NCBI GenBank assembly: GCA_004297825.1
Contig: SCSX01000060.1
Location: 7,631-71,630 of the forward strand
Direction of reading: 5' to 3'
DNA: 64,000 nt
From: Spirochaetota bacterium
GTDB taxonomy: Bacteria > Spirochaetota > UBA4802 > UBA5368
Part shown: positions 33 to 43,972 of the stretch, in pieces
Layout of the letters: each line of letters starts with the position of its first letter
Numbering within the stretch: the stretch's first letter is position 1
Notes under the pieces: generated by a model
What the model was told of the DNA's origin: nothing
What the model saw: only the letters and a program-made list of their open reading frames with translations
The model's database searches: none
Program-made: the position numbers and the translations under genes

Positions 33-527
33 TCATGAATGCGCCCGAACGCGCATGAGAAACACGCCGCACTCCAATGCCACAAGCGCGAGAGAAATAC
101 CGAAAAGAACATAAGTGTTCAATACGCCTGTCGCCGCAAGAACGATAGCGGCGATGGTGATTACCGCCGCCACCAGGGGGCCCATATACCTTCCGGCCGG
201 GATAGCCATTCCTTTCCGGGCCCTTATCCATGCAAGAAGAATCATGAGTACGTACGCAATCGACAGGAATACCATCATCTTTATTTTGAACCTGATATTG
301 ATGCCCGCCAGGAACACCGCCCCCAGGATCGCCCATGAGAGAAGGGGAGGGGTCTCATCTTTTTCGAGGAGCAATTCGCCCAGGAGCAACGCCACGAGTA
401 CGAAAAATAAAAGATTAGCGAATACGATCAGCTCTCCGGAGAAAAGGAGGATGTCATTGTATGAATAGGTGATGAAAAGCGCGGACATCCCGACAATGGT
501 TCTAAACGGCATATTCAGGTTGTTCAT
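33..527 (-). CDS. Small polytopic membrane protein, unknown function, downstream of the RND operon
   Basis: 164-aa ORF that is almost entirely hydrophobic, with about 4-5 predicted TM helices. Its start overlaps the 3' end of the RND permease ORF (502..527). No recognisable motif. Confidence 0.4.
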   Translation of the reverse strand: MNNLNMPFRTIVGMSALFITYSYNDILLFSGELIVFANLLFFVLVALLLGELLLEKDETPPLLSWAILGAVFLAGINIRFKIKMMVFLSIAYVLMILLAWIRARKGMAIPAGRYMGPLVAAVITIAAIVLAATGVLNTYVLFGISLALVALECGVFLMRVRAHS

Positions 528-9669: not shown

Positions 9670-9679
9670 GGCAGTTCGA

Positions 9680-10219
9680 TTAACTCCCCGTATGGAGCAC
9701 GCTGCTGATTTCTTTCACGATGGCAGACGCTATTTTTTCGAGGGTTTTCAAATTCGAGAGCGAATCATTGAGCACATACCGGACTTCTCCAATTTTTTCA
9801 CCGGCGCGGGTATAAAGAAAAACGGTAATCGAAGAACTGGTATTAGTTTCGATCGTATCACCGGAGGTTATTTCGGCAAGCACGCCTTGAACATACAAAT
9901 CGAATTGATACGTTGTGCCCAGTTCTTTGATCTCATCGGAGGTGAAAAGCCTGATCTCGTTCGTCTTCTGGTTGGTTGTAGATGCCGCGACACGTTGAAG
10001 CTCCGTGCTTACCCCGCGTTTGAATAGTTCGAATTTAAGCGCATCGGCAAAATTCAGCGCAACATAGGGATCGTATCCAAGGTTTCGTTTCTCAAAAGTG
10101 CCAATCTGAACTTTTGCGATACGAGCCGGGGCCTTCTCTTTCTGGATATGCATATCGACCCCAGCGCATGACAGTAAGGCAAAAATGGCGATTATAACAC
10201 CTGCGATCGTATTTCTCAT
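9680..10219 (-). CDS. Hypothetical lipoprotein
   Basis: 179 aa. Signal peptide with lipobox (LLSCAG). 4-bp overlap with the upstream TPR lipoprotein gene. No known motif. Confidence 0.5.
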   Translation of the reverse strand: MRNTIAGVIIAIFALLSCAGVDMHIQKEKAPARIAKVQIGTFEKRNLGYDPYVALNFADALKFELFKRGVSTELQRVAASTTNQKTNEIRLFTSDEIKELGTTYQFDLYVQGVLAEITSGDTIETNTSSSITVFLYTRAGEKIGEVRYVLNDSLSNLKTLEKIASAIVKEISSVLHTGS

Positions 10220-10905
10220 TTTTCAATTTCCCCCATTATCACCTGCAGTCCCTTCTTGTTGACTTCCGCCGCATCCGCTATTTTTAATGCGGTTTTCATC
10301 TCCCTGATCGACTTATCCTTGAGGCCCATACGGCGATAGAGCAATCCAAGATTCGCCCGTGTATTCACGAGCGCTTCTTCCTCCTCTAAAGCGGTCAGGT
10401 ATTCCGCAAGCGCTTCCTTATAGAGGGCTCTCTTTTCGTAAAGCAATGCAAGCAGCGAACGTGCATGGATATGATGCGAATCAAGCTCCAGAACGCGTGT
10501 AAGGCTTTCAATTGCCTGCAGTTCGAGCGTCTGTTCATCGGCATTGTCTTTCTTGGGCATCACCGTGAGTATGCGCGCTTTCCAGAAAAGACCGCCGGTG
10601 TGGTCCCGGTTCTCTTTCAGGATTATGCTCACCCGGGAAAGCGCGTCGCCGAATTCCTTTTTAAAATAGTGAATTTTAGCAATCATCAGGTGAGCGTTTA
10701 GAAGGGTCTTATCGTGGTTTAATGCCTCGGAAAAATGGGCGCGCGCCGTATCCAATTCCTGGCGCGTGTAGGCCTCTTTTCCTTTCAGGTAGAATTCCTG
10801 GGCCTTCTCGGTATTTTTCCCGCACGCGAATACGAATAGGGAGCAGATGATGAAATTTAGTAAACAAATTGCAAGTCGACGCATAACTTTGGCCGCCTTC
10901 ACCAT
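10216..10905 (-). CDS. TPR-repeat lipoprotein
   Basis: 229 aa. Lipobox FACG after a hydrophobic signal. Several 34-residue TPR-like repeats (AxxxFxxALxxDP type). Confidence 0.6.
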   Translation of the reverse strand: MVKAAKVMRRLAICLLNFIICSLFVFACGKNTEKAQEFYLKGKEAYTRQELDTARAHFSEALNHDKTLLNAHLMIAKIHYFKKEFGDALSRVSIILKENRDHTGGLFWKARILTVMPKKDNADEQTLELQAIESLTRVLELDSHHIHARSLLALLYEKRALYKEALAEYLTALEEEEALVNTRANLGLLYRRMGLKDKSIREMKTALKIADAAEVNKKGLQVIMGEIEK

Positions 10906-10935
10906 TCAATGAGAATGATGGATGTGTACTTCTCT

Positions 10936-11574
10936 TTATTTGGAGAATTCTATTTTTAATTTAAGTTTGAGCTCGTTTACCAAATCACTTTCCAATTTTT
11001 TCATAGCCAACGCATTGCGCTCATTGGACAGCGAGGTGCGAATTTCAGCCAGGGCTTGTTTCCTGGAGAGCCCCATCTTTGAATAAATCTCCACGTTCTT
11101 TTTATAAACTTCTTCAATCTCTGCGTTGGCGACAGGCGCCCACAGGGATTCGGAATTATGCTCTTCAAGTTGTTTCTTTAGGTAATACTTAACTATCGCG
11201 TCACGGATACTAACCCAGATAAACATGTCAAATTCGGGCGATTTAAATGTACCATCCTCGATGGCCTTATGGATAATCAGAGTCTGATTCAGAATATTAT
11301 CCAGGTAGAGTGCTGCGAGCCCCTTATCCGATAAATTCTTTTCGCGTTCTACCGGGTCGGAAAGCCATTTAATTAAGAATTCACGCTCGCGGTCAACCTG
11401 CGCACGGGTGAGCGTATATCGGTTATCTATCTTTACCGCCCATGGCGCCGAAGGCGGTACTTTGTGATACTCATCATTGAACCGGGATTCAATATCACTG
11501 GTGAGTGTTGACTGGCCGCACGAGAATAAGAGGAAGCTGAATACGATGATCGGGACTTTTAACAGTCTTTTCAT
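10936..11574 (-). CDS. Hypothetical lipoprotein (start chosen at MKRLLKVP; ORF extends to 11640)
   Basis: Signal peptide with lipobox LFSCGQ. Soluble alpha-rich remainder. No recognisable family. Confidence 0.45.
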   Translation of the reverse strand: MKRLLKVPIIVFSFLLFSCGQSTLTSDIESRFNDEYHKVPPSAPWAVKIDNRYTLTRAQVDREREFLIKWLSDPVEREKNLSDKGLAALYLDNILNQTLIIHKAIEDGTFKSPEFDMFIWVSIRDAIVKYYLKKQLEEHNSESLWAPVANAEIEEVYKKNVEIYSKMGLSRKQALAEIRTSLSNERNALAMKKLESDLVNELKLKLKIEFSK

Positions 11575-11811
11575 TGGCAGACACACAATATAGAGGATAG
11601 TTTCGTCGGATTCTACGTCATAGTGAATCCTAATGAACACTATTCACTATTCATTGTGCTGAATAGTGTCAATCATTATTATTCATTGAAATATGAATTT
11701 TAACTTGTATTTAGTAATAATTGCCTCAGCATGATTGCGTATCGTGGATTATTCAAATGCCTTAATATGTGGTTTCATTTTCTGAGCGATATTCATTCTC
11801 TGGAGTGCAAC

Positions 11812-12411
11812 ATGAGTTATAGAAAAGTGATAATTGCAATCCTTTATATCCTGTGTGCTGGTTGTTCAACCATGGGTAAAATTGAAATCAGTAATGAAGC
11901 TCAGGGAGGAATTAAGCGATACACATTACGGCAGCACCACATAGCAGAAGAGCGCATGCCGGGCTTCTGGTCTCCTAATTATCGAGCACTCATAACATAC
12001 TCCCGCACATCCGTCTCGGCAAAAACTGAACCCGTACCCGTCCTTTTTCAAATTCGAGCATGTCAGGAATGTGCTCCCCTTGCCGCTACCGCGGTGTTGA
12101 CGGTTAACGACAAAGACTATATTCTCCCTTTGGAAGAAATCACGACGTCGGACAAATCAGATGCGTATACTCAATCGCATTTTAAATCCGGTGGAGGGGG
12201 AACCGTCGATTATTCCAAGCCGACCGGTTCAACGACGACAACGACTTTTTATCGAATTCTAAAAGCAAGAACCGTGATACCGGCGGATTTAAAACCAGAA
12301 TTGCAGTCGGCTCAGGGAGTGACCTATACATTTCATTCGGGGGATAATGCGATAACGATTAAGCTTTCAGAAAGCGAGTTGATGACATTGAAAGAGCTGC
12401 TACATTATTAG
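11812..12411 (+). CDS. Hypothetical lipoprotein (start chosen at MSYRKV; ORF begins 11731)
   Basis: Signal peptide with lipobox LCAGCS. No recognisable domain. Confidence 0.45.
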   Translation: MSYRKVIIAILYILCAGCSTMGKIEISNEAQGGIKRYTLRQHHIAEERMPGFWSPNYRALITYSRTSVSAKTEPVPVLFQIRACQECAPLAATAVLTVNDKDYILPLEEITTSDKSDAYTQSHFKSGGGGTVDYSKPTGSTTTTTFYRILKARTVIPADLKPELQSAQGVTYTFHSGDNAITIKLSESELMTLKELLHY

Positions 12412-12782
12412 GGTCCGCTTTCAACGACCCCGACTCCGGAAACCAATCTCCAAAATACAACAGAACTACCAACTCCGTCTAGAAACCCTCCAATCACATC
12501 CTTCGCACCAAACTCGCACCACCGTCGCTCCATAGTCACTTTCGCTTTCCTGCGGCTTGAAAATTTGCTTTGAAAACCCTATACAACATAAATGCATGCA
12601 TGTTCATAAAAAACCCGGGAATTGTTCAGAACAGCTTCACAATTAATAAACGTGAAAAAAATTATAAAAATATTCCGGAAAATTTTATTAATCCCGCCCG
12701 GCAATCGTATTCAAGATAACGGTTCAACCGTTAAATCAAATTTACAGGGAGGCTCACCATTAGCACCATTAAACTCAATTCA

Positions 12783-13385
12783 ATGCTGGACGACGTACGT
12801 AAAAAAATGGGGTCGGTTGTCTATTCCAAGTGGAAAGGCATCAATTACGCGAGGACCTACTCTAAACCTACCGGGGAACCCACGGAGAAGCAGCAGAATA
12901 TCCGCAATGCCTTTGGCAAGCTGGTGCAGGACTGGAAGCAGTTGAACGGGGTCATGCACCTGGGCTGGGAGACCTACGCGGAGAACAGGAACCTGACCGG
13001 ATTTAACGCCTTTATCGGCGCCAATTCGGCCAACCAGAAGAAGGGCTTGCCCCTGCGGCTTTTTCGCGAGATGGGAGAAGAGTCTCTCATGAACTTCACC
13101 GTCGTGCCCGGAGCCGCCGCCGGCGAGATCAGCGTTTCATTTCTCAGAACCGAGGAAATCGCCGGCCGGCACGTCACATTCTTCACCCAGAAAAAGGTGA
13201 ATGGACTGGCCCAGGGAAAGTTCCGCCGCTACGACGGCGGGGTCGATACCGCGCCGCCCTTCACCATATCGGGCCTGGAGGCGGGGCAGGAGTATTTCGT
13301 GTATGGAGTGGTCACCGACTCCGCATTCGGAACTGCCGCGAAGGCGTCCGAGTCCGACTCGGCCGTATGCGCGGCGGGGGCGTAA
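12783..13385 (+). CDS. Hypothetical protein with fibronectin-III-like C-terminal segment
   Basis: 200-aa ORF at the low-GC to high-GC transition. C-terminal TISGLEAGQEYFVYGV resembles an FN3 strand pattern. Followed by a clean intrinsic terminator. Confidence 0.4.
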   Translation: MLDDVRKKMGSVVYSKWKGINYARTYSKPTGEPTEKQQNIRNAFGKLVQDWKQLNGVMHLGWETYAENRNLTGFNAFIGANSANQKKGLPLRLFREMGEESLMNFTVVPGAAAGEISVSFLRTEEIAGRHVTFFTQKKVNGLAQGKFRRYDGGVDTAPPFTISGLEAGQEYFVYGVVTDSAFGTAAKASESDSAVCAAGA

Positions 13386-23103: not shown

Positions 23104-23562
23104 TCACGGGGTTGTGTCGATCATCTCCGGGTGCGCGTCGATCCAGGCGAGGATGCCGTTCAACACGCCGGTGACGTCCTTTAATTCATCCCGGCATATT
23201 TCGTAAAGTTCGGCGTTCGATATCTCGTTGTAAAAGTGGACCATCCTGTTCCTGTAGCCGGCGAGTTTCTTCATCCCGGCCGCGGTGTCCGCGTCGATAA
23301 CGCCAACCTCACCGAGCTTCACCGATATACTTTTATATTCGGCGACGTCGATCGCGAATCCCTTCGCGAGTATATGCCTGCCCAGGTCCATGAGCGCCTC
23401 GAGCGCCCTTCTTAGGTAGGATTCCGCCGCTGCGGAATTGCGCGCGTCCAGCGAAAAGGATCGCATGTCCGCCAGCGGCAGCCGTTCGATGCCGGAGAGC
23501 ATGTCCCTGATCCACGCCGCGCGCTCCGACACGACCGATTCCCTGATCTTCGCTTTTGTCAT
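23104..23562 (-). CDS. hepT: HepT-like toxin (DUF86, HEPN RNase) of MntA/HepT TA system
   Basis: C-proximal YRNRMVHFY is the Rx4HxY HEPN/HepT motif. 152 aa. 4-bp overlap with the upstream MntA gene. Confidence 0.85.
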   Translation of the reverse strand: MTKAKIRESVVSERAAWIRDMLSGIERLPLADMRSFSLDARNSAAAESYLRRALEALMDLGRHILAKGFAIDVAEYKSISVKLGEVGVIDADTAAGMKKLAGYRNRMVHFYNEISNAELYEICRDELKDVTGVLNGILAWIDAHPEMIDTTP

Positions 23563-24023
23563 GGGACCCGCACCGCGAGGTTGTTTCTCCTGCGCTCCCT
23601 CTCGTAGTACATGAGGTCCCCGGCCCTTGCCATCACGTACAGCTCATACCTGGCCTGGTCGTCCGGGTCGCCGGCGTAGAGAAGCTCGCCCCGGATGATC
23701 TCCAGCGCGAGAAACGGGGAGGCGTCCTCCAGGAGGACGAGATCGACGCTCCCGGCGCCAAAGAAATCCTCCAGCGCGAAGCCGAATTCCACCTTGATGC
23801 GGGGTGAGGGGTACGCGTCCCTGCGAAACCTGGCGCCAATATCGATGTCGGACGGCGATTCCGCGAGGGCGGGAAGCTCGCCGCGCGCGAAACGGCATAT
23901 CTCGCCGCTCTTGCTTCCAAAGGAGTAGAGCTCCCGCACGCCGTATTCATCGCAAATTGATTCGAGTTGTCCAGTTCTGCCCGCCATGCCTTGAGGATGA
24001 TATAATTTTGGGGGAAATGTCAA
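23559..24023 (-). CDS. mntA: MntA-like nucleotidyltransferase antitoxin
   Basis: YSFGSKSGEICRFARGELPALAESPSDIDIG matches the GSxxxG...DxD minimal NTase motif. Immediately upstream of and overlapping HepT. True start possibly MAGRTG at 23987. Confidence 0.8.
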   Translation of the reverse strand: MTFPPKLYHPQGMAGRTGQLESICDEYGVRELYSFGSKSGEICRFARGELPALAESPSDIDIGARFRRDAYPSPRIKVEFGFALEDFFGAGSVDLVLLEDASPFLALEIIRGELLYAGDPDDQARYELYVMARAGDLMYYERERRRNNLAVRVP

Positions 24024-24050
24024 GAAAATATGGCAGGGCGGCGCGGTCCC

Positions 24051-27000
24051 TCAACTTATCAGGTTAACGCGCCATTTCCCTATTAATCCATCTATATAGG
24101 TAACCTCATAAACGGCGACATCGCCATTGGGCTCATAGATAATGGTAGCGCCGTGCTTATCGTCATACGCCGTTGCAATAGCCGTTGCTTTTGGACGCAC
24201 CTGCGAACCAACGGGTATAGTGCAGTCTTTCACCGTGCAACCGGCGATATCAAGCTCGTCGCTCTGGTAAACACAACATCGTTTTGATTCCTGTTTTGAC
24301 GTGTTTCCATTGTATTCTATCCAAAATCTCATGTCAAAAGGAGCGCGATTATGGATCTTGATCTTGTGCACGGGCGCATGATTTCCCCTCGTCTCATTTA
24401 AAATAACGGTATAATCCGTGGTTGTTCCCTTGACATCATACGTAGCTGCCTGATTGTTCTTTTTATATATGACCCATCGGTTACCGGAAACATCATAACC
24501 CCCACTCGCATAAACCTTTGCCCGCACCAGTGCGCCTTCTTTAATTTCCGGTGCGTCCGTCGCCAGATCACGGACCATGTGACTATTGATGGGGAAGTTG
24601 TCGGTCTTACAGCATGAGCCGCTCGTATTATCCGGATTTACATAATGAATTTCAAATGACATTACAAAACCCGCGTTATTGAAACACGCGATTTTTTGCG
24701 CTTTGTATCTCGCCGGGGTGATGATGTTCACCCCCGCAAGGCTTCCGATGTTATGAAGGGTTACGCCGACATCATTACCGGCGGCGTCCTTCAAGGTCGC
24801 ATGGTTCCTGACGATATCGCTCATTAAAACGACACCTCCCGAATCCCCCTCTTTGACCGTGTATCGGTACGTGATGCTGGTGTCGTTGACGGATTGCTGG
24901 ACCGCGCTGCCGATGTTCTGGAGGCCGAGCGCGCTGTCGGCGCCCGTCACGACGATGGTATTGTTGAATTTGACGGTGAAATCGAGGTGTTCGTTCACAC
25001 CGTAGGCCCTCGCCGCGGGCACGTCGACGCCGGTCACTCTGACGATGGTGTCGACGCTTACGCCCGCGGTGCTTCCGATACCGCGCAGGGTAATATCGGC
25101 GTCATATCCCGCCGTGTCCTTCACGGTCTTGTTGTTCAGGTATAACAGGCCTGCCGGGACCGTGACGGGGCCCTGGTCGCCCGTCTGCACCGTGTAGCGG
25201 TAGGTGATGCCGGCGGCGGGATTCGTAACCGGCTGCTGGATCGCGGCCTTCGTCGATGTACCGATAATAAAGCGCACCTCATTGGCGCCGTTTCCCTCGA
25301 TGTTCACTTCATTGCCGAAGTGGACGGTAAAATCGAGGCTTTCGCCATGGAGATAGGTCCGCGCGGCCGGGACGTCGACGCGCACGATCCTGGCGGTGGT
25401 GTCTGCGTTCACGCCCGCGGTGCTTTGGACTTCGTTCAGGTTTACATCCGCTTCCTTTCCCGACGCGTCTTTAATGGTCGTCGTGCCCATGTGGATCGCG
25501 CTTGAATTAACCAGGACGGCGCCCGAGTCCCCCGCTTTGACCGTGTATCGGTAGGTGATGCCGGCGGCAGGGTTCGTAACCGGTTGCTGGACCGCGTCGC
25601 CGATATTAAGGCCCAGCGTGCTGTCCGCGCCCGTTACGTTGATTCTTTCGCTGAAATGCACGATGAAATCGAGGTTGGCCCCTACGCCGTAGGTCCCGGC
25701 CGCGGGCACGGTGACGGTGGCTATCTTCGGCTTGATCAAATCCACCGTGTAGCTCAGGGTGAAGGGGGCCAGTACTGTGTCGTCCGGGAACTTGATGTTC
25801 GAGTCCGGATTCACGCGTACCTGCAGGGCGCCCTCCTCGAGCGTCCCGGAGAATTCGAGCGATATCATGTTCTCGATAAATCCCACGTTCTCGATGTTCG
25901 ACCTCAGGCCGAAATTGTCGTAGTGGACCCTGCTCAGGGTGAGGCCCGCCGCGCCGGGCAGCGCATAGTTCGAAGTTTTCGTGATCTCGCTTACATCCAG
26001 CGGCGTATCGCCCGCGACGAGCGTTCCCACCGGCCTGGAGAGGACAATATCGATTCTCGAATTCGGCAGGCCCGCGATATAACCCTGCGCGGGAACCACG
26101 GAAAGCACCGTCGGGGCGGCGAGCAGGTTGTCGATCCGCTTCCTGAGATACCGGGCCGCCGTGCCGAAATACGCGCTGTCGCTCATGAACGACGTGGTGT
26201 AGGTGGGATCGTTCAGGGTGAGGCCGCCCCCCGCGTCCGCGAGAAAATAGTTGGATTTAAGCCCGGCCCCGGGAACGTCCCTGTCGAACTGGATGAAGAT
26301 GGGCTCCAGGACCGAGGACGTGGTGCCGTTCTCCGGATACACGCTCAGAATTGAAAGGGAGGACGAAGGCGCCGCCTTGACGACCGTGTAGGTGTAGACG
26401 CCGGCGTTGTTGTGTATGTCGATGTGATTTGCCCCGGAATCGAGCCCCATTGCAGTCATCGTCAGACGCGCCGTGTTGCCCGGGGCCAGCGTTCCAGTGA
26501 CGGTGAGCCTGGCGATGTAGAGAGAGAGCCTGTTGAAGGAAATGGGATAGTTTTTGGCGGTGAAGCAGGTTTCCCATTTGTCGGCGATGAATTCCCGCTG
26601 GGTGGGGGAGCCCTTGTCGGTTATGATGAAGGTCCACATCTTCGTCCCGTCGCATCCGCCGTCGTAGGACGGGTCGTTGACGCGGTTGAATGCGGTGAGG
26701 TAGGTATCGGCATTGACGTGGTCGGAATCGATCACGGTGTAAAGGCCAGCGGTAATGGGATCGGATGGACTGATGTCTCCAGACGTAAAACGTCTCTCTA
26801 TGCCTCCACTTGATGGGAATTTTTCATTAATTCTTGACGCATCAATACTTTCATTATGCGAGAAAAATGCGATGGCGATTTTTAAGTTCGCAACTGGCAG
26901 TTCACTTCGCAGTTTGAGAAGATAGTAGACCCAGTCCCAACCACCGCCGATGTCGATGAAGGAGAGAATCGTGATAGTATCGTTAAAAAATGCCTCATTA

Positions 27001-27071
27001 AAATCAATTTGGCCGGATCTGCCATATTTATTTAGGGTGAAAAATGGTGGTTTAAATCCGATCTTTAGCAT
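24051..27071 (-). CDS. Large surface/adhesin-like protein with 4 tandem Ig-like (BIG-type) repeats
   Basis: 1006 aa. No N-terminal signal peptide. The central region has about 110-aa repeats each carrying QQPVTNPAAGITYRYTV(K/Q)(A/T)GD(S/Q)G. A Cys-containing C-terminal domain of about 250 aa. Confidence 0.65.
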   Translation of the reverse strand: MLKIGFKPPFFTLNKYGRSGQIDFNEAFFNDTITILSFIDIGGGWDWVYYLLKLRSELPVANLKIAIAFFSHNESIDASRINEKFPSSGGIERRFTSGDISPSDPITAGLYTVIDSDHVNADTYLTAFNRVNDPSYDGGCDGTKMWTFIITDKGSPTQREFIADKWETCFTAKNYPISFNRLSLYIARLTVTGTLAPGNTARLTMTAMGLDSGANHIDIHNNAGVYTYTVVKAAPSSSLSILSVYPENGTTSSVLEPIFIQFDRDVPGAGLKSNYFLADAGGGLTLNDPTYTTSFMSDSAYFGTAARYLRKRIDNLLAAPTVLSVVPAQGYIAGLPNSRIDIVLSRPVGTLVAGDTPLDVSEITKTSNYALPGAAGLTLSRVHYDNFGLRSNIENVGFIENMISLEFSGTLEEGALQVRVNPDSNIKFPDDTVLAPFTLSYTVDLIKPKIATVTVPAAGTYGVGANLDFIVHFSERINVTGADSTLGLNIGDAVQQPVTNPAAGITYRYTVKAGDSGAVLVNSSAIHMGTTTIKDASGKEADVNLNEVQSTAGVNADTTARIVRVDVPAARTYLHGESLDFTVHFGNEVNIEGNGANEVRFIIGTSTKAAIQQPVTNPAAGITYRYTVQTGDQGPVTVPAGLLYLNNKTVKDTAGYDADITLRGIGSTAGVSVDTIVRVTGVDVPAARAYGVNEHLDFTVKFNNTIVVTGADSALGLQNIGSAVQQSVNDTSITYRYTVKEGDSGGVVLMSDIVRNHATLKDAAGNDVGVTLHNIGSLAGVNIITPARYKAQKIACFNNAGFVMSFEIHYVNPDNTSGSCCKTDNFPINSHMVRDLATDAPEIKEGALVRAKVYASGGYDVSGNRWVIYKKNNQAATYDVKGTTTDYTVILNETRGNHAPVHKIKIHNRAPFDMRFWIEYNGNTSKQESKRCCVYQSDELDIAGCTVKDCTIPVGSQVRPKATAIATAYDDKHGATIIYEPNGDVAVYEVTYIDGLIGKWRVNLIS
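24860..25640. repeat. Intragenic tandem DNA repeats (~340-bp period, 3-4 copies) encoding the Ig-like repeats
   Basis: Near-identical segments gtgtatcggta(c/g)gtgatgc...ggattgctggaccgcg recur at about 24860, 25190 and 25540. Confidence 0.6.
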
Positions 27072-27106
27072 GCCAAGCCTCCATTATTTGTTATTGGAAT
27101 TCGCCA

Positions 27107-28576
27107 TCACTCTTTCCGCGTGTTGCCCCAGACGGAACTTGAGAGCGTCTGATCGTCGCCGGCCAATGAAACACTGATGGAATTCCATTCGCTCGCCGCG
27201 ATGAATGCCGCCGTGTCGTCGATATAATAGTAGTGGTCAGCGGTTGAGGCGTAGAAGTTGAAATAGTTGTGCGTCAAGGAAAGGGGATCCGCGTCGGATG
27301 TGAATTCACACATTCCTCTCATATGAGCAACAGAAATAGTGTTCGTCAATTCATTGTAATCGATTTGTGGTTGAGAATCATAATCCAACATTATCCCAAT
27401 GGCCATATTTCCGCCCCCTCCACAATCGATGGTGTTGTTATTAATAATAAGCGTTGTTGTTGTAGCAATAGCTGAATATATGCCGAAGGTGTTATATGCG
27501 TATCCCCCTCCAATTGTATTGTAAGAAATCTGGCTATTTGTACCTGCATCATATATTCCATAGGTGTAATCCCCACTTCCACTGGCATATCCCGGATCGA
27601 TAACGTTTTGCGAAATAATACAAGTGCCCGCGGTGACACGCATACCATACGCGTATTTTCTTTCGGCTTTGAACGAACCTTTCCCCTGTATGGTATTGTA
27701 TGAAATCGTCATGCTTCCCTGGCAGAAAATACCGGCAGTATAATCACCGTCGGCGAGCTTGATCGTGAAGCCGTCCAGAACTGTGCTGGCGGTATCGGTG
27801 ACCGAGGTTTCACAGTATACAGCCCTGTTGGGGGTCGATGTCGTTCCTCCCGAGGCGCTGGTATCCTCCACGATCGTCTCGTTGCCGCTTACGTCGCGCG
27901 CGCTGAAGTCGGAGGAATAGCCGCCATACACGGAGATGCCGTTTTTCATGCTGATAACGGGCGCGGAGGACACGGCATAATTCGACTGGTAGGTGCCCGC
28001 GCCCACCCGTACGGTGGGCATGTTGGCCGCTCCGTACTTGTCGTTTGCCCTGTCGATCCCGTCCTGGATAAGGCTGAGCGGCGCGGTCCTGGTTCCGGTG
28101 TTCGACGGGCTTCCGGGATTCTCCGCGCCGGCGGCCGGATTCACATACACCGCGTATTCCACATCGAAGGAATACTCCACGGTCCTGTTCAGCGTAAACG
28201 AACCGATGATCGAATCGCACTCCACCGTGAGGGTCTTGCCCGCGCCCTTCTCCCAGATGTTGGCCGACGGGGTGAGCGTGACCGTGTCGTTGTCATACGT
28301 TGTGGTGCTCCACGCGGCGACGATTGCGCCCGGATTGCCGTCCAGCGTCCCGCTCACCTGCAGGGAGGAGGGGTCCATCTCGTCCCCGAACCGGATCACG
28401 ATCTCCTCGTGCCCGGCGATGGTCGAGCCATCGGAGGGCGTGGCGGTTATGGCCGAGTACTTGTAATTATCCGCATCGGGATCGTTCGGGTTGTCACGCG
28501 CGACGTTCGCGCAGGAGAGCAACGACCCGCTGAGAATGCATAATGCCACCGTTATATTTATTGATCGCGTTTTCAT
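27107..28576 (-). CDS. Right-handed parallel beta-helix repeat lipoprotein (pectate-lyase-fold-like)
   Basis: Lipobox LLSCAN. Repeated NxIxGxG / NNTIDCGGGG / ISYNTIGGG turns typical of PbH1 beta-helix repeats. 36 bp upstream of the adhesin-like gene. Confidence 0.65.
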   Translation of the reverse strand: MKTRSINITVALCILSGSLLSCANVARDNPNDPDADNYKYSAITATPSDGSTIAGHEEIVIRFGDEMDPSSLQVSGTLDGNPGAIVAAWSTTTYDNDTVTLTPSANIWEKGAGKTLTVECDSIIGSFTLNRTVEYSFDVEYAVYVNPAAGAENPGSPSNTGTRTAPLSLIQDGIDRANDKYGAANMPTVRVGAGTYQSNYAVSSAPVISMKNGISVYGGYSSDFSARDVSGNETIVEDTSASGGTTSTPNRAVYCETSVTDTASTVLDGFTIKLADGDYTAGIFCQGSMTISYNTIQGKGSFKAERKYAYGMRVTAGTCIISQNVIDPGYASGSGDYTYGIYDAGTNSQISYNTIGGGYAYNTFGIYSAIATTTTLIINNNTIDCGGGGNMAIGIMLDYDSQPQIDYNELTNTISVAHMRGMCEFTSDADPLSLTHNYFNFYASTADHYYYIDDTAAFIAASEWNSISVSLAGDDQTLSSSVWGNTRKE

Positions 28577-28622: not shown

Positions 28623-29558
28623 TCAGAACCTGTACCCGACGCTGAACGTATGCACCCGTTCGGGATACGGTGTCATGGTGTTCACACAATATTGGTAATC
28701 GAAGAAGGTATCGCGCGCCGCGCTTTCCACGGCGCCACCGCTGAAGTCCGGACGCGAGAAGAACAGGACGTCCACCCAGTGCGCCAGGTACACCGCCCCG
28801 AACACGATCAGAGAATAATTGAAGTAATCGCCCGCCTTCTTGTAGTCGTTGTACCTGCTGTCGAACTCGGAAGAACCTGTTCCCAGCTCATGGTATGCGT
28901 CGGATTTCGACTGGTAGTTTGCATACATGAAATACACGCCAGCCCCGGCGGCAAGGCCCAGGGACCCGAACACGATCCCCTTCACGGGGCGGCCCGCGTA
29001 GAACTGGCCCAGGCCCGGCACCGTGCTCAGGGTATAATAAAAGAAGGGCGATTTCGAGATGAGCACCTCCTTGTCGCCCCCCACGATCCTCTGCGCGAGC
29101 CTCTTGGCAACGTCCGTCGCGGTCTGGTCGATCACGTCGATTGACGCGCCCGTGCCTTTCTCGGCGAGCAGGGACGCCCCCTTCTCAACGTCGATATAGC
29201 GTACGGTGATGAGGATAGAGTTTTCGAGCGCGGTCACCTCGCCCGCGATGATTCTCCTGGCGGAGAGAAGCTTTCCCGCCTGTATGGCGCAGCCCTCATC
29301 GGTGCATCCGGTCATCTGGAAACTCTGCTCCGCGAGGATCGCCTTCATCTGGTTTCGCTCGACCACGGTGAAGTTGCCGTAATTGGAGAGCTCCGCGCGC
29401 ATGATGTCCGACACGGCGCCCGCGACGATAACCGGAACGCCCCTGGGGGTGAGGTCGAGTATGGCCACGGTCATCTTCTCAGCCGCGAAAAGGCCGGGCG
29501 CGGTGATCACCATTGCCACACCGACCAGGATGTGCACAAGCGTGGTCTTATTCAGCAT
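28623..29558 (-). CDS. Hypothetical envelope protein (periplasmic alpha/beta N-domain plus C-terminal membrane segment)
   Basis: Signal peptide MLNKTTLVHILVGVAMVITAPGLFAAEK. The VAILDL...AVSDIMRAELSNYGNFTVVERNQMKAILAEQ segment loosely resembles CsgG/LpoB-like domains. Start chosen at M25 (ORF to 29630). Confidence 0.45.
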   Translation of the reverse strand: MLNKTTLVHILVGVAMVITAPGLFAAEKMTVAILDLTPRGVPVIVAGAVSDIMRAELSNYGNFTVVERNQMKAILAEQSFQMTGCTDEGCAIQAGKLLSARRIIAGEVTALENSILITVRYIDVEKGASLLAEKGTGASIDVIDQTATDVAKRLAQRIVGGDKEVLISKSPFFYYTLSTVPGLGQFYAGRPVKGIVFGSLGLAAGAGVYFMYANYQSKSDAYHELGTGSSEFDSRYNDYKKAGDYFNYSLIVFGAVYLAHWVDVLFFSRPDFSGGAVESAARDTFFDYQYCVNTMTPYPERVHTFSVGYRF

Positions 29559-38923: not shown

Positions 38924-41900
38924 CTAGAACTTTATCCCCAGCACGCGGTTGTACGTTTCCCCGTCGATCGTGACGCGCTGGTAAAGGATCTTCAGTATGG
39001 AGAACTTGCTGAAGCCCGTCTCGCTCTCCGTCTGGTATTCCCAGAGTATGCCCCAGAGGCTGCCGCGCCCCGTGTAACCGCGCTCGGGAACCTGGACCTT
39101 GTAATAGGGAATGCCCAGGAGAAGCGTCTGGGTGTCGGAACGTTCCTGCGGCTTGTAGTTCCGGTACCAGAGCGCGCCCAGGGCCCACATCTGGAACTTC
39201 CCGTAATCCTTGTCGCTCGAAAGATACGACAGGAGCGGCGGGATGAGCAGGCTGTAGCCCTGCGCGTCCCTCGAGTAATACCAGAGCGGGGTCGCGTAAT
39301 GGTAGAAGCGCCCCTGCTCGTTGCCCACCTGGTAGAGGAACCAGAGCACGTTCGTGCTCCAGTCGGTGGGCGAGGTCTTGTAATTCTTGTAGGACAGGAG
39401 CGCACCCCACACAAGGTTGAACTCGGTGACGGAGGGAGAAAAATCCCACGAGATCGTATTCAGCACGAAGCCGGTATGGGTGGAGGTGTAGTCCTTATCC
39501 TCCTGCCGCGAACGGTCGACAAGAAGCAGCAGGTTCCAGTGCGAATATCCCGGTGAAGAGTGGAGATAGAAGCCCGGGAGCGTAAACAGGGTGGAGGCTT
39601 CCTTCTCGCGCCATGAAAAAACAAAAGGCAGCAAATGCCGGGATGATTCGCCCGTCGTTCGGTCGTTGCTCGAATACCACAGGAGCGTAAGCGCCGAATC
39701 GCTCGTCCTGTCATGCGAGCGGTACAGCAGGGGCGGCAGGAAGAACCAGGTGCTTTCATCGGGCGATGAATAGGTGTACCAGATCGGAAGAACCGGGATA
39801 AGCCATCGACGGTACGCCTGCTTCGCGTGATCGTTCGACCAGTCGAAAAGTCCCAGCACGTTCAGGTGCGAGCCGTCGCCGGAGGAAGACCGATACACGA
39901 GCGGTATGATCGGGAACCAGAACGTCGACTCGTACCCGTGGTCCTTGTCGGTCCGGTAGTCCTTGTAGAAGAAGAGGCTTGTGTGCGAGTTCTCAAAATA
40001 CTCGTACCCGGGCGTCTCGCTCGTCGCGCTCGAGTAATAATAAAGCGCGGGAACCACCCAGGTCGCGCGCTCGCGGGCGTCATAGGTCGCGTAATTCCCG
40101 TTGATGTACGCGGAGCGTTTCGCGTGCGAGACCTCGGTGTGGACGAGCCAGAACAGGAACGAGTTCTCGCTGTCGTCCTTCCCTGCATGCCATATCCCCT
40201 GGTAGAGCCCCAGCATGAACAGGAACTCGCTCTTGTCGGCAGCGCGCTCGTAGTAGTAAAACGGCAGGAAGTGCGACTTGTTCTTCTCATTCGAGGAATA
40301 GGATTTGTACAGTCCCCACAGGAGCTCGAACTCGCTCGCCCCGGATTCCTTGTAATCTGTGGAGCCCACGAGCCCCAGCAGGAAGCTCCAGTGCGCGATG
40401 CTCGCGTCGCGCGTGTAGTAATATCCCAGCATGAAGAGCGAGCGTTCCCGCGTTTCATCCCCCACCCTCGCCGATGAATAATAAAGGAGCGGCAGTCCCA
40501 GCAGGGTGAAATCGGTGCGCGTCGCGCCCTCCTTTGCGAGCAGCGTATCGCGCGAGGTCCAGAACCAGAGCGGAAGGACGAACGACGACGCGGTGGACAG
40601 GGGATAGCTCCCCTCTTTCCGCTCGCCGATATTCGCCGCGTAACGGGTCTCGTCCCGGTTGTAGTACACCAGGGGAAGAATGGGGAACCACCACGTCTTC
40701 TCCTCGTAGGACGCCGCCTGCTTATAGTCATAATACCACAGCGGACTGATAGTGAAGCTCGCGTTCACGTTCTTGTCCGCGTCCGTCGTGCGGGAAGAAT
40801 AATAGAGCGGGAGAAACAACGATTTCGCGACGCGCTCGTCTTTTTTCTGGCGCTCCCAGTGATAGAAGAGCGGCAGGATCCTCCAGCCCGATTTCTTCGC
40901 ACCATTGTACCAGTTGATAATCGGCCAGACAACCGACCTGTCGTAAAGGTCTTCGGTCTGGTCGTACTCGGTCCAGTAGAGGTTCAAGAGGTACGCTTTC
41001 TTGTAGCTCCGATCCACGCGCTGCATTCCATAAAACGGAAAGAACACGAGGTACTCCAGTTCCTTAGAATCGTAGGAGATGTAATTGAGAATCACCTTGA
41101 CGGAATCCGTGTCGGTGAAGGTGATCCATGAAAGCGGCAGAAGCCGGAAATGCGTCCGCGCGTCAGCCCTCTGCCATGCGAGCCATCCGTAAAGGAACTT
41201 GAACCCGAAGAAGTTGTTAGAATCGTCCCGGCTCACGGTGCTCTTGGACGCAAGGCTTACGCCCTTGGGCTGGGCCTCCGCCTTCGCCTTTGCCTCGCGC
41301 TCGAGATCAAGCCTGGTCGCCTCGTCCATGGCCTTTTCCGTGAAGGGAATGGGAGAGCGATAGGAGAGACTCACCGCATCGTACAGCCATGACAAATCAA
41401 GATCGACGTAGTAATTGCTCTCGTTCGATCCAAGTCCCAGGCTCACGTTCGGATACGCCCCCAGCGCGGAGCTCTTCGACAGGCCCAGGATGTTGACATG
41501 GACCTTCGTTTTCCTGTCGCTGTAATCCAGGTAGAGCGGCAGGACGAGCGTGAATTCCCGCTTCTTTGTCTCGAAGTTCCAGTAGAGCGGGACGAGGTTG
41601 CTTGTGGAAAAACCCGTCGATTGGTTATAATGCTTGTAGTACAGGAGCGCCCACTGCGTCTCATACCCCGGGCTCCAGTTGTGGTAGTAGAACAGGCCGA
41701 ACGACCAGCCGCGCTCGTCGGTGTTACCTGAGGGCCGGAAGTAGAAGGGCGCGTACACCCGGTAGCCCATTGATCCGAATTCGTGGAAGACAAGCGGGAA
41801 GGCCCAGAAGCTCTTCCAGCTTCCATCGGGATTGGTCTGCCAGTCGAAGAGCACCAGGAGGTTTTTGTCCTTAACGCCGGTTTCCTCGGTACGCGATGAA

Positions 41901-43972
41901 TATACGAGCGGTATGACGGGGAACCAGAATCGCTCGAACCCGGCGTGGTCCTTGTCAAACGGGGCCTCGCGGTAGTCCATGCCGAAGATCGAGAGCTTCA
42001 GGCTCGAGTTTGCGTCGTCCCAGCTCATGAACAGCGGGGGGAGCAAATGCAGGTATGCGCCGTCCTTCTGGAAGACAAAGGGCATGGCCCAGAACCGGTC
42101 GGTGTTCCCTTCCTTCGTGGTATGCCAGTCGAAAAGGATAAGCGCGTTGCGCGACACGCTTCCGTCTTCCCTGTAGTGATGGGAATAGAGGACCGGGAGT
42201 ATCGGCACCCAGAGACGCGAGCTCCCGCCCGCGCCGGTAACGGCGGTGGTGATACTATCACCGGTTTCGCCGTCACGCTTTGCCGGTTCGGGGGTGCCGG
42301 GTGCAACCGTCTCCCAGTAGAAGAGCGGGTTTACGCGCATCGTGGTACGCCCCTCCGTCCAGCTCATGTAGAGCAGCGGGGGTATGTGCCGGTACGCGTT
42401 ATCCTTCGCGAAGTAGAAAGGCGCGATCCACAGCCGGTCCAGGACGCCCTCTTTCGAGTAGCGCCAATCGAAGAGCATCAGCAGGTTGCGCGATACGCCC
42501 CCGTTCGGGGACTGGTATGACGAATAGAGCAGGGGGAGTATCGGCACCCATATCCTTTCCTCGGAGACCTCCGCCTGCGCGCCCGCCTTGTACGAATACT
42601 TGTACAGGTACGGCGCGACGATATACTTCTCGAAGTTATCCCACCAGCTCAGGTAACCGAGCGGAGGGATGTGCAGGTAGGAATCGTCCTTCTGGAAATA
42701 GAGGGGCGTGAACCAGAAACGCTCGTTGGTCCCGTCACGCCGGTTCTGCCAGTCGAATAGCCACGCGAGATTACGGTGCGTGCCCTCGCGCTGGTCGTAG
42801 CTCGAATAATACAGGGGAACGAGCGGGAAGAAGAACGTCTTCTTCAAGATGTCCCCGTCCCACTTGTTCTCGCCCGATGACGTGGTGAAGCTCGAATATA
42901 TGGGGGTCAGATACGACTCGTAGTATCCGGTCACGCCCGTGTCCCGGTCGTAATCCCATGTGGACTCGACGCTCTTCGTATGCTGGTACAGCGGCAGGAG
43001 GTGCGTGTAGAGCTCGCCGTTTGATTTGCGCAGGTTGATAAATACGGGCGGGAGGACGTCCGTGTAACCGTCGTCGCCGGGCTTATGCAGGAAGACCGGG
43101 AAGAACCAGAAGTGGTTCAACCTGTCCTTTCCGTCCACGGTATCCCAGTCCCAGTCTATGAGCCACAGGATGTTCTGGTGGCCTCCGGCATGGCTCCACG
43201 ACCGCAGCACGAGGGGAATGATGGGAAACCACCAGACGCGTTCCCGCAAATCGCCGGAAGCGGTGTAGTCCGAGTAATACATGTGCAGGAGCGACAGGTT
43301 CGCGCGCTCCTGGGTGTAGCCGTCCTTCGAGTCCTTCCTCTCCGTGTGCCAGTAGACGAGCGGGGAAACGATCGTAAATTCGAACTGGTTCTCGTTCGTG
43401 TAATCGTTGTTCCAGTACAGGAGGGGGAAGATGGTGAGATATTTGTCCATCCGGTACTTGTACGAGTGATGTCCCCACCATGTGAACCAGAGGAACGAGC
43501 GGTGCTGCTCTTTTTTGTCTATGCGGGAATAATAGAACGGGCTAACCGTGAGGTTTTCCGTGTCGTCTATATGGTTGTACCAGAGCAGCAGGTAGAGTGA
43601 ACGCTCCCTGTTGTCGATCTTCGAATCCATGTGATAGAAAAAAGGGAGAAACCGGGTCGAAGTATACTTTGGGAAATCGGTACTTTTATACAGCTGCAGG
43701 AACATGCAGACGGAGTGACTTCCGTCGGGCCAGTCTTCCTTGCGAAAGAAGGGACCCCCGTCAATCTGGACCTTCTTGGCCTTCTCGCTGCCAAAAAGCT
43801 CGTACTCGCCCTCGTCCAGGTCGTCCCAGCTGGAATGCGTCGCGAATACGGGAACGGCCGCGCCCAGGATGACAATCGTGACGAAAAAGAGACGCAGAAG
43901 ATTTTTCACGGGTGACCGCTCCTTGGGCTCGAAGGTAAAGGAATTGTAAAGAAAGAACGGGAAAAACTTCAA
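38924..43972 (-). CDS. Giant (1682 aa) Trp/Pro/Tyr-rich tandem-repeat envelope protein, unknown family
   Basis: N-terminal signal-like hydrophobic segment (LRLFFVTIVILGAAVPVFA). More than 20 degenerate 55-65-aa repeats with consensus W(F/V)P(I/L)(I/L)PL(V/L)Y(S/Y)S...G....NLxxLFDW....G..RxWxxP(F/L)YF.KD..Y.HIPPLxYxSW. Confidence 0.75.
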   Translation of the reverse strand: MKFFPFFLYNSFTFEPKERSPVKNLLRLFFVTIVILGAAVPVFATHSSWDDLDEGEYELFGSEKAKKVQIDGGPFFRKEDWPDGSHSVCMFLQLYKSTDFPKYTSTRFLPFFYHMDSKIDNRERSLYLLLWYNHIDDTENLTVSPFYYSRIDKKEQHRSFLWFTWWGHHSYKYRMDKYLTIFPLLYWNNDYTNENQFEFTIVSPLVYWHTERKDSKDGYTQERANLSLLHMYYSDYTASGDLRERVWWFPIIPLVLRSWSHAGGHQNILWLIDWDWDTVDGKDRLNHFWFFPVFLHKPGDDGYTDVLPPVFINLRKSNGELYTHLLPLYQHTKSVESTWDYDRDTGVTGYYESYLTPIYSSFTTSSGENKWDGDILKKTFFFPLVPLYYSSYDQREGTHRNLAWLFDWQNRRDGTNERFWFTPLYFQKDDSYLHIPPLGYLSWWDNFEKYIVAPYLYKYSYKAGAQAEVSEERIWVPILPLLYSSYQSPNGGVSRNLLMLFDWRYSKEGVLDRLWIAPFYFAKDNAYRHIPPLLYMSWTEGRTTMRVNPLFYWETVAPGTPEPAKRDGETGDSITTAVTGAGGSSRLWVPILPVLYSHHYREDGSVSRNALILFDWHTTKEGNTDRFWAMPFVFQKDGAYLHLLPPLFMSWDDANSSLKLSIFGMDYREAPFDKDHAGFERFWFPVIPLVYSSRTEETGVKDKNLLVLFDWQTNPDGSWKSFWAFPLVFHEFGSMGYRVYAPFYFRPSGNTDERGWSFGLFYYHNWSPGYETQWALLYYKHYNQSTGFSTSNLVPLYWNFETKKREFTLVLPLYLDYSDRKTKVHVNILGLSKSSALGAYPNVSLGLGSNESNYYVDLDLSWLYDAVSLSYRSPIPFTEKAMDEATRLDLEREAKAKAEAQPKGVSLASKSTVSRDDSNNFFGFKFLYGWLAWQRADARTHFRLLPLSWITFTDTDSVKVILNYISYDSKELEYLVFFPFYGMQRVDRSYKKAYLLNLYWTEYDQTEDLYDRSVVWPIINWYNGAKKSGWRILPLFYHWERQKKDERVAKSLFLPLYYSSRTTDADKNVNASFTISPLWYYDYKQAASYEEKTWWFPILPLVYYNRDETRYAANIGERKEGSYPLSTASSFVLPLWFWTSRDTLLAKEGATRTDFTLLGLPLLYYSSARVGDETRERSLFMLGYYYTRDASIAHWSFLLGLVGSTDYKESGASEFELLWGLYKSYSSNEKNKSHFLPFYYYERAADKSEFLFMLGLYQGIWHAGKDDSENSFLFWLVHTEVSHAKRSAYINGNYATYDARERATWVVPALYYYSSATSETPGYEYFENSHTSLFFYKDYRTDKDHGYESTFWFPIIPLVYRSSSGDGSHLNVLGLFDWSNDHAKQAYRRWLIPVLPIWYTYSSPDESTWFFLPPLLYRSHDRTSDSALTLLWYSSNDRTTGESSRHLLPFVFSWREKEASTLFTLPGFYLHSSPGYSHWNLLLLVDRSRQEDKDYTSTHTGFVLNTISWDFSPSVTEFNLVWGALLSYKNYKTSPTDWSTNVLWFLYQVGNEQGRFYHYATPLWYYSRDAQGYSLLIPPLLSYLSSDKDYGKFQMWALGALWYRNYKPQERSDTQTLLLGIPYYKVQVPERGYTGRGSLWGILWEYQTESETGFSKFSILKILYQRVTIDGETYNRVLGIKF

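Follow-up and report, generated by a model that had tools for sequence, protein, structure and literature searches.

A leaderless modular protein with a predicted thioredoxin-like head in a conserved three-gene cassette of uncultured Spirochaetota

The stretch of DNA analysed here, referred to as the window, comprises 64 kb of contig SCSX01000060.1 from a metagenome-assembled 'Spirochaetes bacterium', and our subject in it is two co-oriented minus-strand genes for large surface-type proteins (locus tags EPN93_11955 and EPN93_11960), which had been recognised as such in the initial annotation and whose open reading frames (ORFs) occupy positions 24051-27071 (1006 aa) and 27107-28576 (489 aa). 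Both belong to a tight three-gene operon, in which ORF 28623-29630 is gene 1, the 489-aa ORF is gene 2 and the 1006-aa ORF is gene 3. The mechanically called gene 1 ORF reaches a GTG at 29630, and its likely start is the ATG at 29558 (gene 1, 28623..29558, minus strand). The intergenic gaps are 46 nt and 35 nt, with a GGAGG-type Shine-Dalgarno sequence after each. Gene 2 (27107..28576, minus strand) encodes a lipoprotein, and gene 3 (24051..27071, minus strand) a modular protein without a leader, whose head is conserved and whose tail varies. We found the operon to be a conserved three-gene cassette of uncultured Spirochaetota, of which genes 2 and 3 are the distal two-thirds. It evolves under purifying selection, with a ratio of nonsynonymous to synonymous divergence (dN/dS) of about 0.13-0.4 (dN 0.26-0.42 vs dS 0.8-2.0); for gene 3 the ratio is about 0.25-0.4 against its orthologue at the related locus L003, which belongs to a different organism and whose proteins are 55-66% identical to those of the window. 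Across the 64-kb window, ARAGORN reported 0 tRNA and 0 tmRNA genes, no Rfam family reached its gathering score, and no second copy of the gene 3 family was found.

The start of gene 3 decides what is made of its missing signal peptide, for which the initial annotation had offered either non-classical export or a mis-called start. The N-terminus, MLKIGFKPPFFTLNKYGRSG..., is without a hydrophobic core: within the first 40 residues, the Kyte-Doolittle value of 10-residue stretches peaks at 1.18, compared with 2.5-2.9 for true leaders nearby. Signal peptides were judged throughout by pattern matching and Kyte-Doolittle hydropathy rather than by a dedicated predictor; inspected in this way, the N-terminus has no twin-arginine (RR) motif and no Sec, Tat or lipoprotein leader, so the larger protein does indeed lack a Sec signal. 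An in-frame TAA lies at 27084-27086, four codons 5' of the ATG at 27071, and the sequence GGAGG can be read at 27078..27082 (minus strand), 6 nt 5' of the same ATG. The relatives P0002, P0003 and P0004 (29-51% identity) begin MLKIGDK... or MLRIGDR..., and their alignment with the gene 3 protein runs from residue 1. Because the homologues align from Met1, a stop codon stands just upstream and the Shine-Dalgarno sequence is well placed, we take ATG 27071 as the true start; a mis-called start is thereby excluded, and no upstream in-frame start with a leader is possible. The NCBI model of EPN93_11955 (894 aa) uses instead a GTG at codon 113 that has no Shine-Dalgarno sequence; it is 112 codons too short and cuts off positions 26736-27071 of the minus strand, i.e. 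most of the conserved thioredoxin-like domain described below.

Domains of the gene 3 product

Alignments show that the head, aa 1-445, is the only part of the gene 3 protein conserved among relatives. It was divided into two parts. Head part 1 (aa 1-178, 26538..27071, minus strand) takes a thioredoxin fold of the ResA/TlpA/DsbE/peroxiredoxin type in a structure prediction made with AlphaFold2 (AF2) on aa 1-450. The model has a mean predicted local distance difference test (pLDDT) value of 61; two stretches score higher, residues 1-130 at 70-86 and residues 190-290 at 73-90. From the N-terminus to about residue 178, the elements follow the order beta-beta-beta-alpha-beta-alpha-beta-alpha-beta-beta, that is, a thioredoxin fold with an N-terminal beta-hairpin extension, and Foldseek against the PDB returned ResA, DsbE, TlpA and peroxiredoxins with probability 1.00 and template-modelling scores, TM(target), of 0.6-0.69 (ResA about 0.67; 39 matches at E<=1e-3). 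At the sequence level, Pfam gave no match to aa 1-171 even at E<=10 (no Redoxin, no AhpC-TSA), and a PDB sequence search with the head profile gave no meaningful match. Head part 2 (aa 179-445, 25737..26537, minus strand) consists of a beta-sandwich, a Big_5-like immunoglobulin (Ig) domain (Big_5 match, E 8e-4), an invariant helix and a second Ig-like domain. The helix, R-Y-L-x-x-R-I-D-N-L-L-x-x-P (aa 307-320, 26112-26153, minus strand), was identified from alignments and is seen in distant members too.

At the active-site position of head part 1, the start of helix 1, the family carries the signature S-F-[IV]-D-I-x-x-G-W-x-W-L, and the corresponding motif in the window is G-W-D-W-V. Counted over the 45 members whose thioredoxin-like domain is near-complete, F38 occurs in 44, W45 in 39 and W47 in 42, and the residues of D-K-W at 164-166 are kept in 42, 41 and 38, respectively. 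A CxxC motif anywhere in the domain was found in 1/45 members, and a Cys within positions 40-50 in 2/45. We conclude that the thioredoxin fold of head part 1, as modelled, is redox-dead and that its aromatic and acidic surface is conserved. A redox function is very unlikely, and the domain appears to be a pseudo-enzyme; since W-x-W stands in place of CxxC and the aromatic and acidic surface is conserved, a binding rather than a catalytic role is suggested.

The head is followed by three Ig-type units, delimited by self-comparison: unit 1 (aa 447-559, 25395..25733), unit 2 (aa 560-676, 25044..25394) and unit 3 (aa 677-783, 24723..25043), all on the minus strand. Unit 1 lies in the region matched by P0005 and P0006, which carry Big_12/Big_13, and proteins that match the repeat region alone carry Pfam Big_12 or Big_13. 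The initial annotation had counted four near-identical repeats that were nearly identical at the DNA level, and had read them as a recent, recombination-prone expansion with possible copy-number variation. The count and the near-identity did not hold, and the recent expansion, the proneness to recombination and the copy-number variation are not supported. There are three units, whose pairwise identity is 48-54% at the protein level and 65-71% at the DNA level; exact DNA matches between the unit pairs extend over at most 20, 19 and 10 nt. A gap-free repeat search likewise gave three copies with a period of 333-351 nt, at 68-86% identity over short stretches only, and Tandem Repeats Finder (TRF) reported 0 arrays on 20-33 kb. 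Efficient RecA-dependent recombination needs longer identical stretches than 20 nt, and because the exact stretches shared by the units do not exceed this length, the claim that they are recombination-prone has no sequence support. The repeat region is, judged from its sequence, an ordinary bacterial Ig-like module made of old duplicates with a DNA divergence of about 30-35%. A recently expanded tandem-repeat surface gene of the contingency type was considered as well and is ruled out by the 0 arrays of TRF together with the 65-71% DNA identity.

The C-terminal part had been described as Cys-rich and unrelated to the repeats. Its independence from the repeats was borne out, and the Cys content proved only modest (7 Cys in the C-terminal 223 aa, unconserved in the closest relative, P0002). 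The region comprises two beta-sandwiches of about 110 aa each, D1 (aa 784-898, 24378..24722, minus strand) and D2 (aa 899-1006, 24054..24377, minus strand), the latter a diverged duplicate of the former (self-alignment score 77 vs 26 +/- 5 for shuffles); P0002 carries one homologous copy of this domain. An AF2 model of the C-terminal region reached a pLDDT of 72, with domain 1 at 78-91, and Foldseek placed the PepT1/2 extracellular domains at the top of the PDB matches, followed by about 15 cholesterol-dependent cytolysins (probability 1.00). Cytolysin domain 4 and the PepT extracellular domain were nearest in two independent structure comparisons, and the domain-4 beta-sandwich fold of cholesterol-dependent cytolysins is found in the model. 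The C-terminal 223 aa contain no undecapeptide of the ECTG...WEWW type, only 3 Trp and no MACPF/CDC Pfam match; a PDB sequence search with the gene 3 C-terminus gave no meaningful match, and a homology search with these 223 aa alone returned nothing, not even the query itself, a word-index limit under which relatives may exist. The tail would be a binding-type beta-sandwich according to its model, and the likeness to cytolysin domain 4 is a lead, not a family membership.

The partner proteins and conservation of the cassette

The gene 2 leader, MKTRSINITVALCILSGSLLSC, shows by pattern matching a charged n-region, an h-region and a lipobox Cys; leader and lipobox LLSC (aa 19-22, the hydrophobic stretch preceding it) occupy 28511-28576 of the minus strand. 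They are followed by a Big_5 Ig-like domain (aa 41-123, 28208-28456, minus strand; Pfam, E 8e-6) and by a repeat-rich region (about aa 141-440, 27257-28156, minus strand) with recurring I-x-[YN]-N-x-I motifs, which from the sequence is probably a right-handed beta-helix. The orthologues are 38-55% identical; those at L001 and L002 match the lipobox pattern, and the leader at L003 (...AALAC) was recognised by eye, the pattern not being matched. Gene 2 has 11 relatives, and 2/12 of the homologues scanned match PF13229 Beta_helix (6e-7) or PF07602 DUF1565 (2e-6). The repeat region of gene 2 itself has no significant Pfam match, the lipoprotein profile has no meaningful PDB sequence match, and NCBIfam has no match for genes 2 and 3. 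Of the beta-helix lipoprotein originally described, the lipoprotein part is borne out by the leader pattern, and the beta-helix has the support of those two relatives without a direct match.

Gene 1 encodes a protein with a hydrophobic leader of the cleavable type, an alpha/beta domain resembling CsgG-N/LpoB/TolB-N and a DUF5683-like domain. Pfam CsgG matches it at 1.1e-11, covering only profile positions 39-104 of 210, and the matches to DUF5683, LpoB, TolB_N and DUF3280 are all under the Pfam cut-offs. The leader ends ...APGLFA|AEK, with no lipobox Cys; the protein further contains a PGLGQFY motif, two hydrophobic segments and an alternating-hydrophobic tail ending ...SVGYRF. Orthologues are 39-66% identical, and hhalign connects the protein to distant loci at 96.9-99.7%. 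In 7/7 gene 1 homologues, a hydrophobic leader at the N-terminus is combined with one or two hydrophobic segments and with an alternating-hydrophobic tail that ends in Phe; PGxGQxY is present in 6/7. Tails of this kind, e.g. TFSVGYRF and ASLKYEKRF, occur in the window (28623-28766) and at L001, L003, L005, L007 and L008, despite the helix-like hydrophobic segments. An alternating-hydrophobic tail ending in Phe is the pattern of the outer-membrane beta-signal, which the gene 1 tail thus resembles in sequence. Gene 1 is not a member of the CsgG family in the strict sense, since the match is partial and confined to the soluble part, the lipobox is missing and no curli genes lie nearby (none of csgE, csgF, csgA or csgB in Pfam scans of the neighbours in the window and at 11 related loci). 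Literature searches on DUF5683 and on CsgG in spirochaetes found nothing relevant.

A search of 1.84 billion cluster representatives with the head profile retrieved 57 proteins at E<=1e-3, 43 of them at E<=1e-10, so that the family is a rare one. The named sources are all Spirochaetota metagenome-assembled genomes (MAGs; Spirochaetia or Leptospirales), apart from one labelled just 'bacterium'. In 37 of the 45 members with a near-complete thioredoxin-like domain, this domain begins within 8 residues of the N-terminus, and those whose N-termini were inspected have no hydrophobic leader. Member lengths range from about 250 to 2468 aa, with tails that comprise Ig arrays, VWA plus a conserved C-terminal region, Lys-rich histone-H1-like sequences and weak HhH; the payload domains are of extracellular type (Big_5/12/13, VWA, CHB_HEX_C, DUF1573). 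The window gene 3 protein is without a Lys/Ala/Pro-rich tail. In five or six members (P0009, P0010, P0014, P0020 with P0060, and P0025) the head stands behind a lipoprotein leader, with or without Big_5; in those members at least, the head must therefore work outside the cytoplasm.

Twelve independent loci were examined, namely the window and its relatives, in 11 of which gene 1 was assessable; a profile search of genome contigs yielded 2 loci only, one of them duplicating L001. A homologue of the gene 2 lipoprotein lies directly upstream of the gene 3 homologue in 8/12 loci (window, L001, L002, L003, L006, L007, L009 and L010; hidden Markov model E-values 3e-22 to 1e-227), and an RCC1 beta-propeller with its own leader takes the place of gene 2 in 2/12 (L005 and L008). 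Gene 1 homologues are present in 6/11 assessable loci, and at L011 a CsgG-like gene lies nearby on the other strand. A link between P0020 and gene 2 of the 'Rosetta-stone' kind was considered and not relied on, with a probability of 88% only and a similarity that may be generic to Big_5.

Some loci show further arrangements. At L008 (Leptospirales MAG GCA_040326155.1, 4092-24444), three paralogous members of 1165, 2218 and 975 aa, together with an unrelated 1401-aa gene, lie after the gene 1 homologue and the RCC1 propeller gene, and the last paralogue has a lipoprotein leader. At L001 (Spirochaetota MAG GCA_043803405.1), an inserted Y1 (IS200-like) transposase gene at 7483-7842 separates gene 1 from the lipoprotein gene, and upstream there is a second CsgG-like gene, divergently oriented and accompanied by an ECF sigma factor. 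Two loci unrelated to each other, L007 (4682-4876) and L010 (246-446), have a tatA/B/E gene a short way upstream, a few genes from the cassette; this may be coincidental, and the family heads showed no twin-arginine motif.

Base composition and surroundings of the cassette

The two genes had been taken for a moderate-GC island spanning 24051-28576. A quantitative calculation confirmed the drop, with GC per 1 kb of 0.49 at 24001-25000 and 0.48 at 27001-28000 vs about 0.60-0.65 in the flanks, but not the single island: in 300-nt windows there are two separate low patches, between which the Ig-repeat core stays at 0.59-0.64, the level of the flanks (0.60). We then expressed both patches as GC at third codon positions (GC3). 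Patch A (26757..27751) straddles the junction of the two genes, taking in aa 276-489 in the 3' part of gene 2 together with the initial ~105 codons of gene 3 (GC3 0.44-0.49), and patch B (24051..24746) covers the two C-terminal beta-sandwich domains (GC3 0.49). Accordingly, GC3 in gene 3 is 0.44 over aa 1-120, about 0.80 over aa 121-775 and 0.49 over aa 776-1006, and in gene 2 it is 0.80 over aa 1-275 and 0.49 over aa 276-489; elsewhere in the two genes it is 0.78-0.82, and in the flanking genes 0.71-0.78. The other genes of the window, in windows of 100 codons, have a GC3 of 0.81 +/- 0.08 with a minimum of 0.48.

The L003 orthologue has low GC3 at the same positions, its C-terminal domain reaching 0.25-0.47, and comparison of the window with L003 gave the same amino-acid identity, nucleotide identity and dS (0.8-2.0) for the patches as for the rest of the sequence. 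Loci at a greater distance show the pattern weakly (L001, L002 and L007) or not at all (L005, L006 and L008). Because L003, at a dS of about 1, has the same patches at the same positions, they indicate old chimerism and not a recent island, and the part of the earlier claim that implied a recent import falls away. Read most simply, these sequences point to an exchange of segments with cassettes of lower GC that preceded the split of window and L003, with only partial amelioration since then. A recent exchange of the patches between lineages was rejected on the equal identity and dS inside and outside them, and an AT-rich junction selected family-wide on the absence of the trough in L005, L006 and L008. 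A horizontally acquired island was rejected too, there being no contiguous deviant block that differs from the relatives, and L003 having the same pattern. Of the hallmarks of islands, no tRNA was found in the window and no integrase among the neighbours scanned (some small ORFs lying outside the scan), and the sole repeat pair flanking the two genes is a 22-nt match of 86% identity, likely due to chance.

Other features of the surroundings are as follows. Immediately downstream of the cassette, at 23104-24023 (minus strand), lies a toxin-antitoxin pair consisting of an MNT-type nucleotidyltransferase (Polbeta 7.5e-5, under the Pfam cut-off) and HepT, and the gap between this pair and the cassette holds a TTGACA-type promoter-like motif. 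Toxin-antitoxin genes adjoin the cassettes elsewhere as well (PIN/DUF433, HicA and MazE in L003; Phd/Uma2 in L006). An RND efflux operon at 502-9669 (minus strand) encodes two AcrB-like pumps, a membrane-fusion protein of the HlyD type and an outer-membrane efflux protein, and TPR and unknown genes come after it. It sits in the largest low-GC block of the window (about 5000-13000, GC 0.42-0.53 vs about 0.60), and as a candidate compositional island this block is to be preferred to genes 2 and 3. At 38924-43972 (minus strand), a 1682-aa ORF with no Pfam match has a hydrophobic N-terminal segment, is Trp/Tyr-rich and ends ...LGIKF; its sequence suggests that the product may be a giant outer-membrane protein.

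Proposed role of the cassette and comparison with known systems

Our preferred reading, in which we have moderate confidence, is that the gene 3 product, as a modular protein of the envelope or cell surface, docks to the products of genes 1 and 2. Gene 1 would supply a signal-bearing membrane protein with a CsgG-N/LpoB-like periplasmic domain, the head of gene 3 would dock to the gene 1 and gene 2 products at the cell envelope, the three Ig units would form a stalk, and the two cytolysin-D4/PepT-like beta-sandwiches at its tip would bind a ligand, which may be a membrane, a glycan or a protein. The gene 3 product would then be an adhesin or binding factor that reaches the envelope by a non-Sec route. 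The tails would act as swappable payload, and the exchange of tails and of the gene 2/gene 3 junction segment among related cassettes would have made the GC3 mosaic before the L003 split. An envelope location is proposed because the head stands behind lipoprotein leaders elsewhere, both partners have leaders and the payloads are of extracellular type; non-classical export is supported, though not proven, by these data. It also seems to us conceivable, if quite unlikely, that the head is a folded N-terminal export or docking tag for a Sec-independent Spirochaetota delivery system consisting of the gene 1 protein and the lipoprotein, with interchangeable payloads such as Ig stalks, cytolysin-D4-like binders, VWA domains and Lys-rich tails.

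Several observations weigh against docking at the envelope. No known signal points to an export route for the gene 3 product: Pfam and NCBIfam, applied to the whole protein and to its C-terminal 223 aa, gave no RTX, Por_Secre_tail, CHU_C or other secretion-signal match, so that the type IX or type I secretion signals (T9SS/T1SS) suggested for the C-terminus were not borne out, and there is no conserved ATPase or transporter among the neighbours in the window and at the related loci. Both partners are absent in 2/12 loci (L011 and L012). The match of gene 1 covers only the soluble alpha/beta part of CsgG and lends no support to a channel role. The AF2 models, built on 3-4 sequences, reach mean pLDDT values of 61 and 72, and the model quality is poor over head residues 300-450. 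Lys-rich tails are found in many members, among them P0003, P0004, P0011, P0040, P0051 and P0057 (K 33-50% of the last 60 residues), and P0003 has an HHH_3 match under the Pfam cut-off.

Lys-rich tails and HhH motifs are common in cytoplasmic nucleic-acid binders, and the leaderless proteins might accordingly be cytoplasmic or lie on the inner face of the inner membrane, where the head would bind a cytoplasmic part of gene 1 or another partner and the tails would bind DNA or polyanions. Besides the tails of several members and the HHH_3 match, the lack of a signal of any known export pathway fits this arrangement, as do the two hydrophobic segments of gene 1, which could make an inner-membrane hairpin with a cytoplasmic loop. 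We nevertheless consider it unlikely, as the same head stands behind lipoprotein leaders in P0009, P0010, P0014, P0020 and P0025, the conserved neighbour is a lipoprotein, the payloads are mostly of extracellular type, and domains of the ResA/TlpA type usually lie outside the cytoplasm. The gene 3 protein might instead be exported by a known secretion system whose genes lie elsewhere in the genome, be it T1SS, a T9SS-like system or the flagellar type III secretion system (T3SS) delivering into the spirochaete periplasm. The absence of a leader from a protein of extracellular-type architecture would agree with this, spirochaetes do export leaderless flagellar proteins into the periplasm, and P0006, which matches the Ig repeats only, carries the T9SS-type CHU_C. 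Its probability appears small, given that neither RTX, T9SS-CTD nor any other secretion signal was matched in Pfam or NCBIfam, that the C-termini are unconserved across the family, and that the N-terminus is, in the model, the first strand of a folded domain and not a disordered signal of the T3SS type.

Two other explanations concern the origin of the genes. Gene 3 could be the fission product of a lipoprotein-head fusion such as P0010 or P0020, now decaying or joined to gene 2 by frameshift or readthrough; natural fusions of a lipoprotein leader with the head do exist, with or without Big_5, the N-terminus of P0020 matches the gene 2 family at 88% probability, and genes 2 and 3 are just 35 nt apart. 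We regard this as very improbable, because the split form with an intact Met-Leu-x-Ile-Gly start is found in 37/45 members and a dN/dS of about 0.25-0.4 speaks against decay. A fusion of genes 2 and 3 by readthrough or frameshift was rejected, the two genes being in different frames, readthrough past the TGA reaching a TAA after 13 codons, and gene 3 having its own Shine-Dalgarno sequence and ATG. A recently acquired moderate-GC island with expanding near-identical repeats of variable copy number is largely refuted and retains hardly any credibility. The GC dips in 1-kb windows and the toxin-antitoxin genes that flank the cassette here and in relatives, suggesting a variable genome region, are set against repeats of 65-71% DNA identity with exact matches of <=20 nt and no TRF array, patches that are intragenic and recur at the same positions in an orthologue at dS ~1, a host-like GC3 of ~0.8 in gene 1 and in the cores of genes 2 and 3, and the lack of a tRNA in the window and of an integrase among the neighbours scanned.

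If the docking of gene 3 at the envelope holds, the cassette would define a small spirochaete family of modular envelope or surface proteins that have no recognisable export signal, carry a redox-dead thioredoxin domain and have their genes beside those of two dedicated envelope partners. It would also be a concrete example of proteins being delivered non-classically, in a phylum about whose envelope biology little is understood. The public annotation, which starts 112 codons late, hides the conserved head, and the apparent island and the repeats are old features and hence not evidence for recent transfer or phase variation. The basis of this work is MAG sequences, and what it offers for now is the definition of a protein family, the description of a conserved cassette and a hypothesis that is clear.

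The head family, the architecture of a leaderless dead thioredoxin and the conserved cassette are all absent from Pfam, NCBIfam and the literature searched, and the parts can be compared with known systems one at a time. The head shares with ResA, TlpA, DsbE (CcmG) and the peroxiredoxins the fold and the order of secondary-structure elements, and its opening 'hGDxxPxFxL' resembles the N-terminus of these enzymes; unlike them, it has no CxxC or peroxidatic Cys and no membrane anchor or leader, and it is fused to Ig domains and long payloads. The tail resembles cytolysin domain 4 and PepT1/PepT2, from which it differs in the absence of the undecapeptide and of the pore-forming domains 1-3 and in an identity of 10-14%, and generic beta-sandwiches score just slightly below these matches. 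Gene 1 has an alpha/beta match in common with CsgG/HfaB/LpoB/TolB-N, and as in those systems a secreted envelope protein is encoded beside its presumed client; in contrast to CsgG, it has no lipobox and no match in the transmembrane hairpin region, its C-terminal half is DUF5683-like, and the presumed client, gene 3, is leaderless, whereas curli subunits use Sec. Gene 2 resembles the DUF1565 or right-handed beta-helix lipoproteins in its I-x-N-N-x-I repeats and in the matches of 2/12 of its relatives, and is unlike them in having no significant Pfam match there. Finally, the Big_5/Big_12/Big_13 surface proteins and, by analogy, the Lig proteins of Leptospira, which belong to the same phylum, likewise use tandem Ig-like domains as a spacer that keeps a distal binding end apart from an anchor. 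Proteins of the Lig type, being lipoproteins, have Sec/SPII leaders, and their repeats are Big_2, while the gene 3 family is leaderless, has a dead thioredoxin head and carries repeats of another Big type. The individual domains are all of known kind, and the gene 3 protein would be a variant of the modular Ig-repeat envelope proteins.

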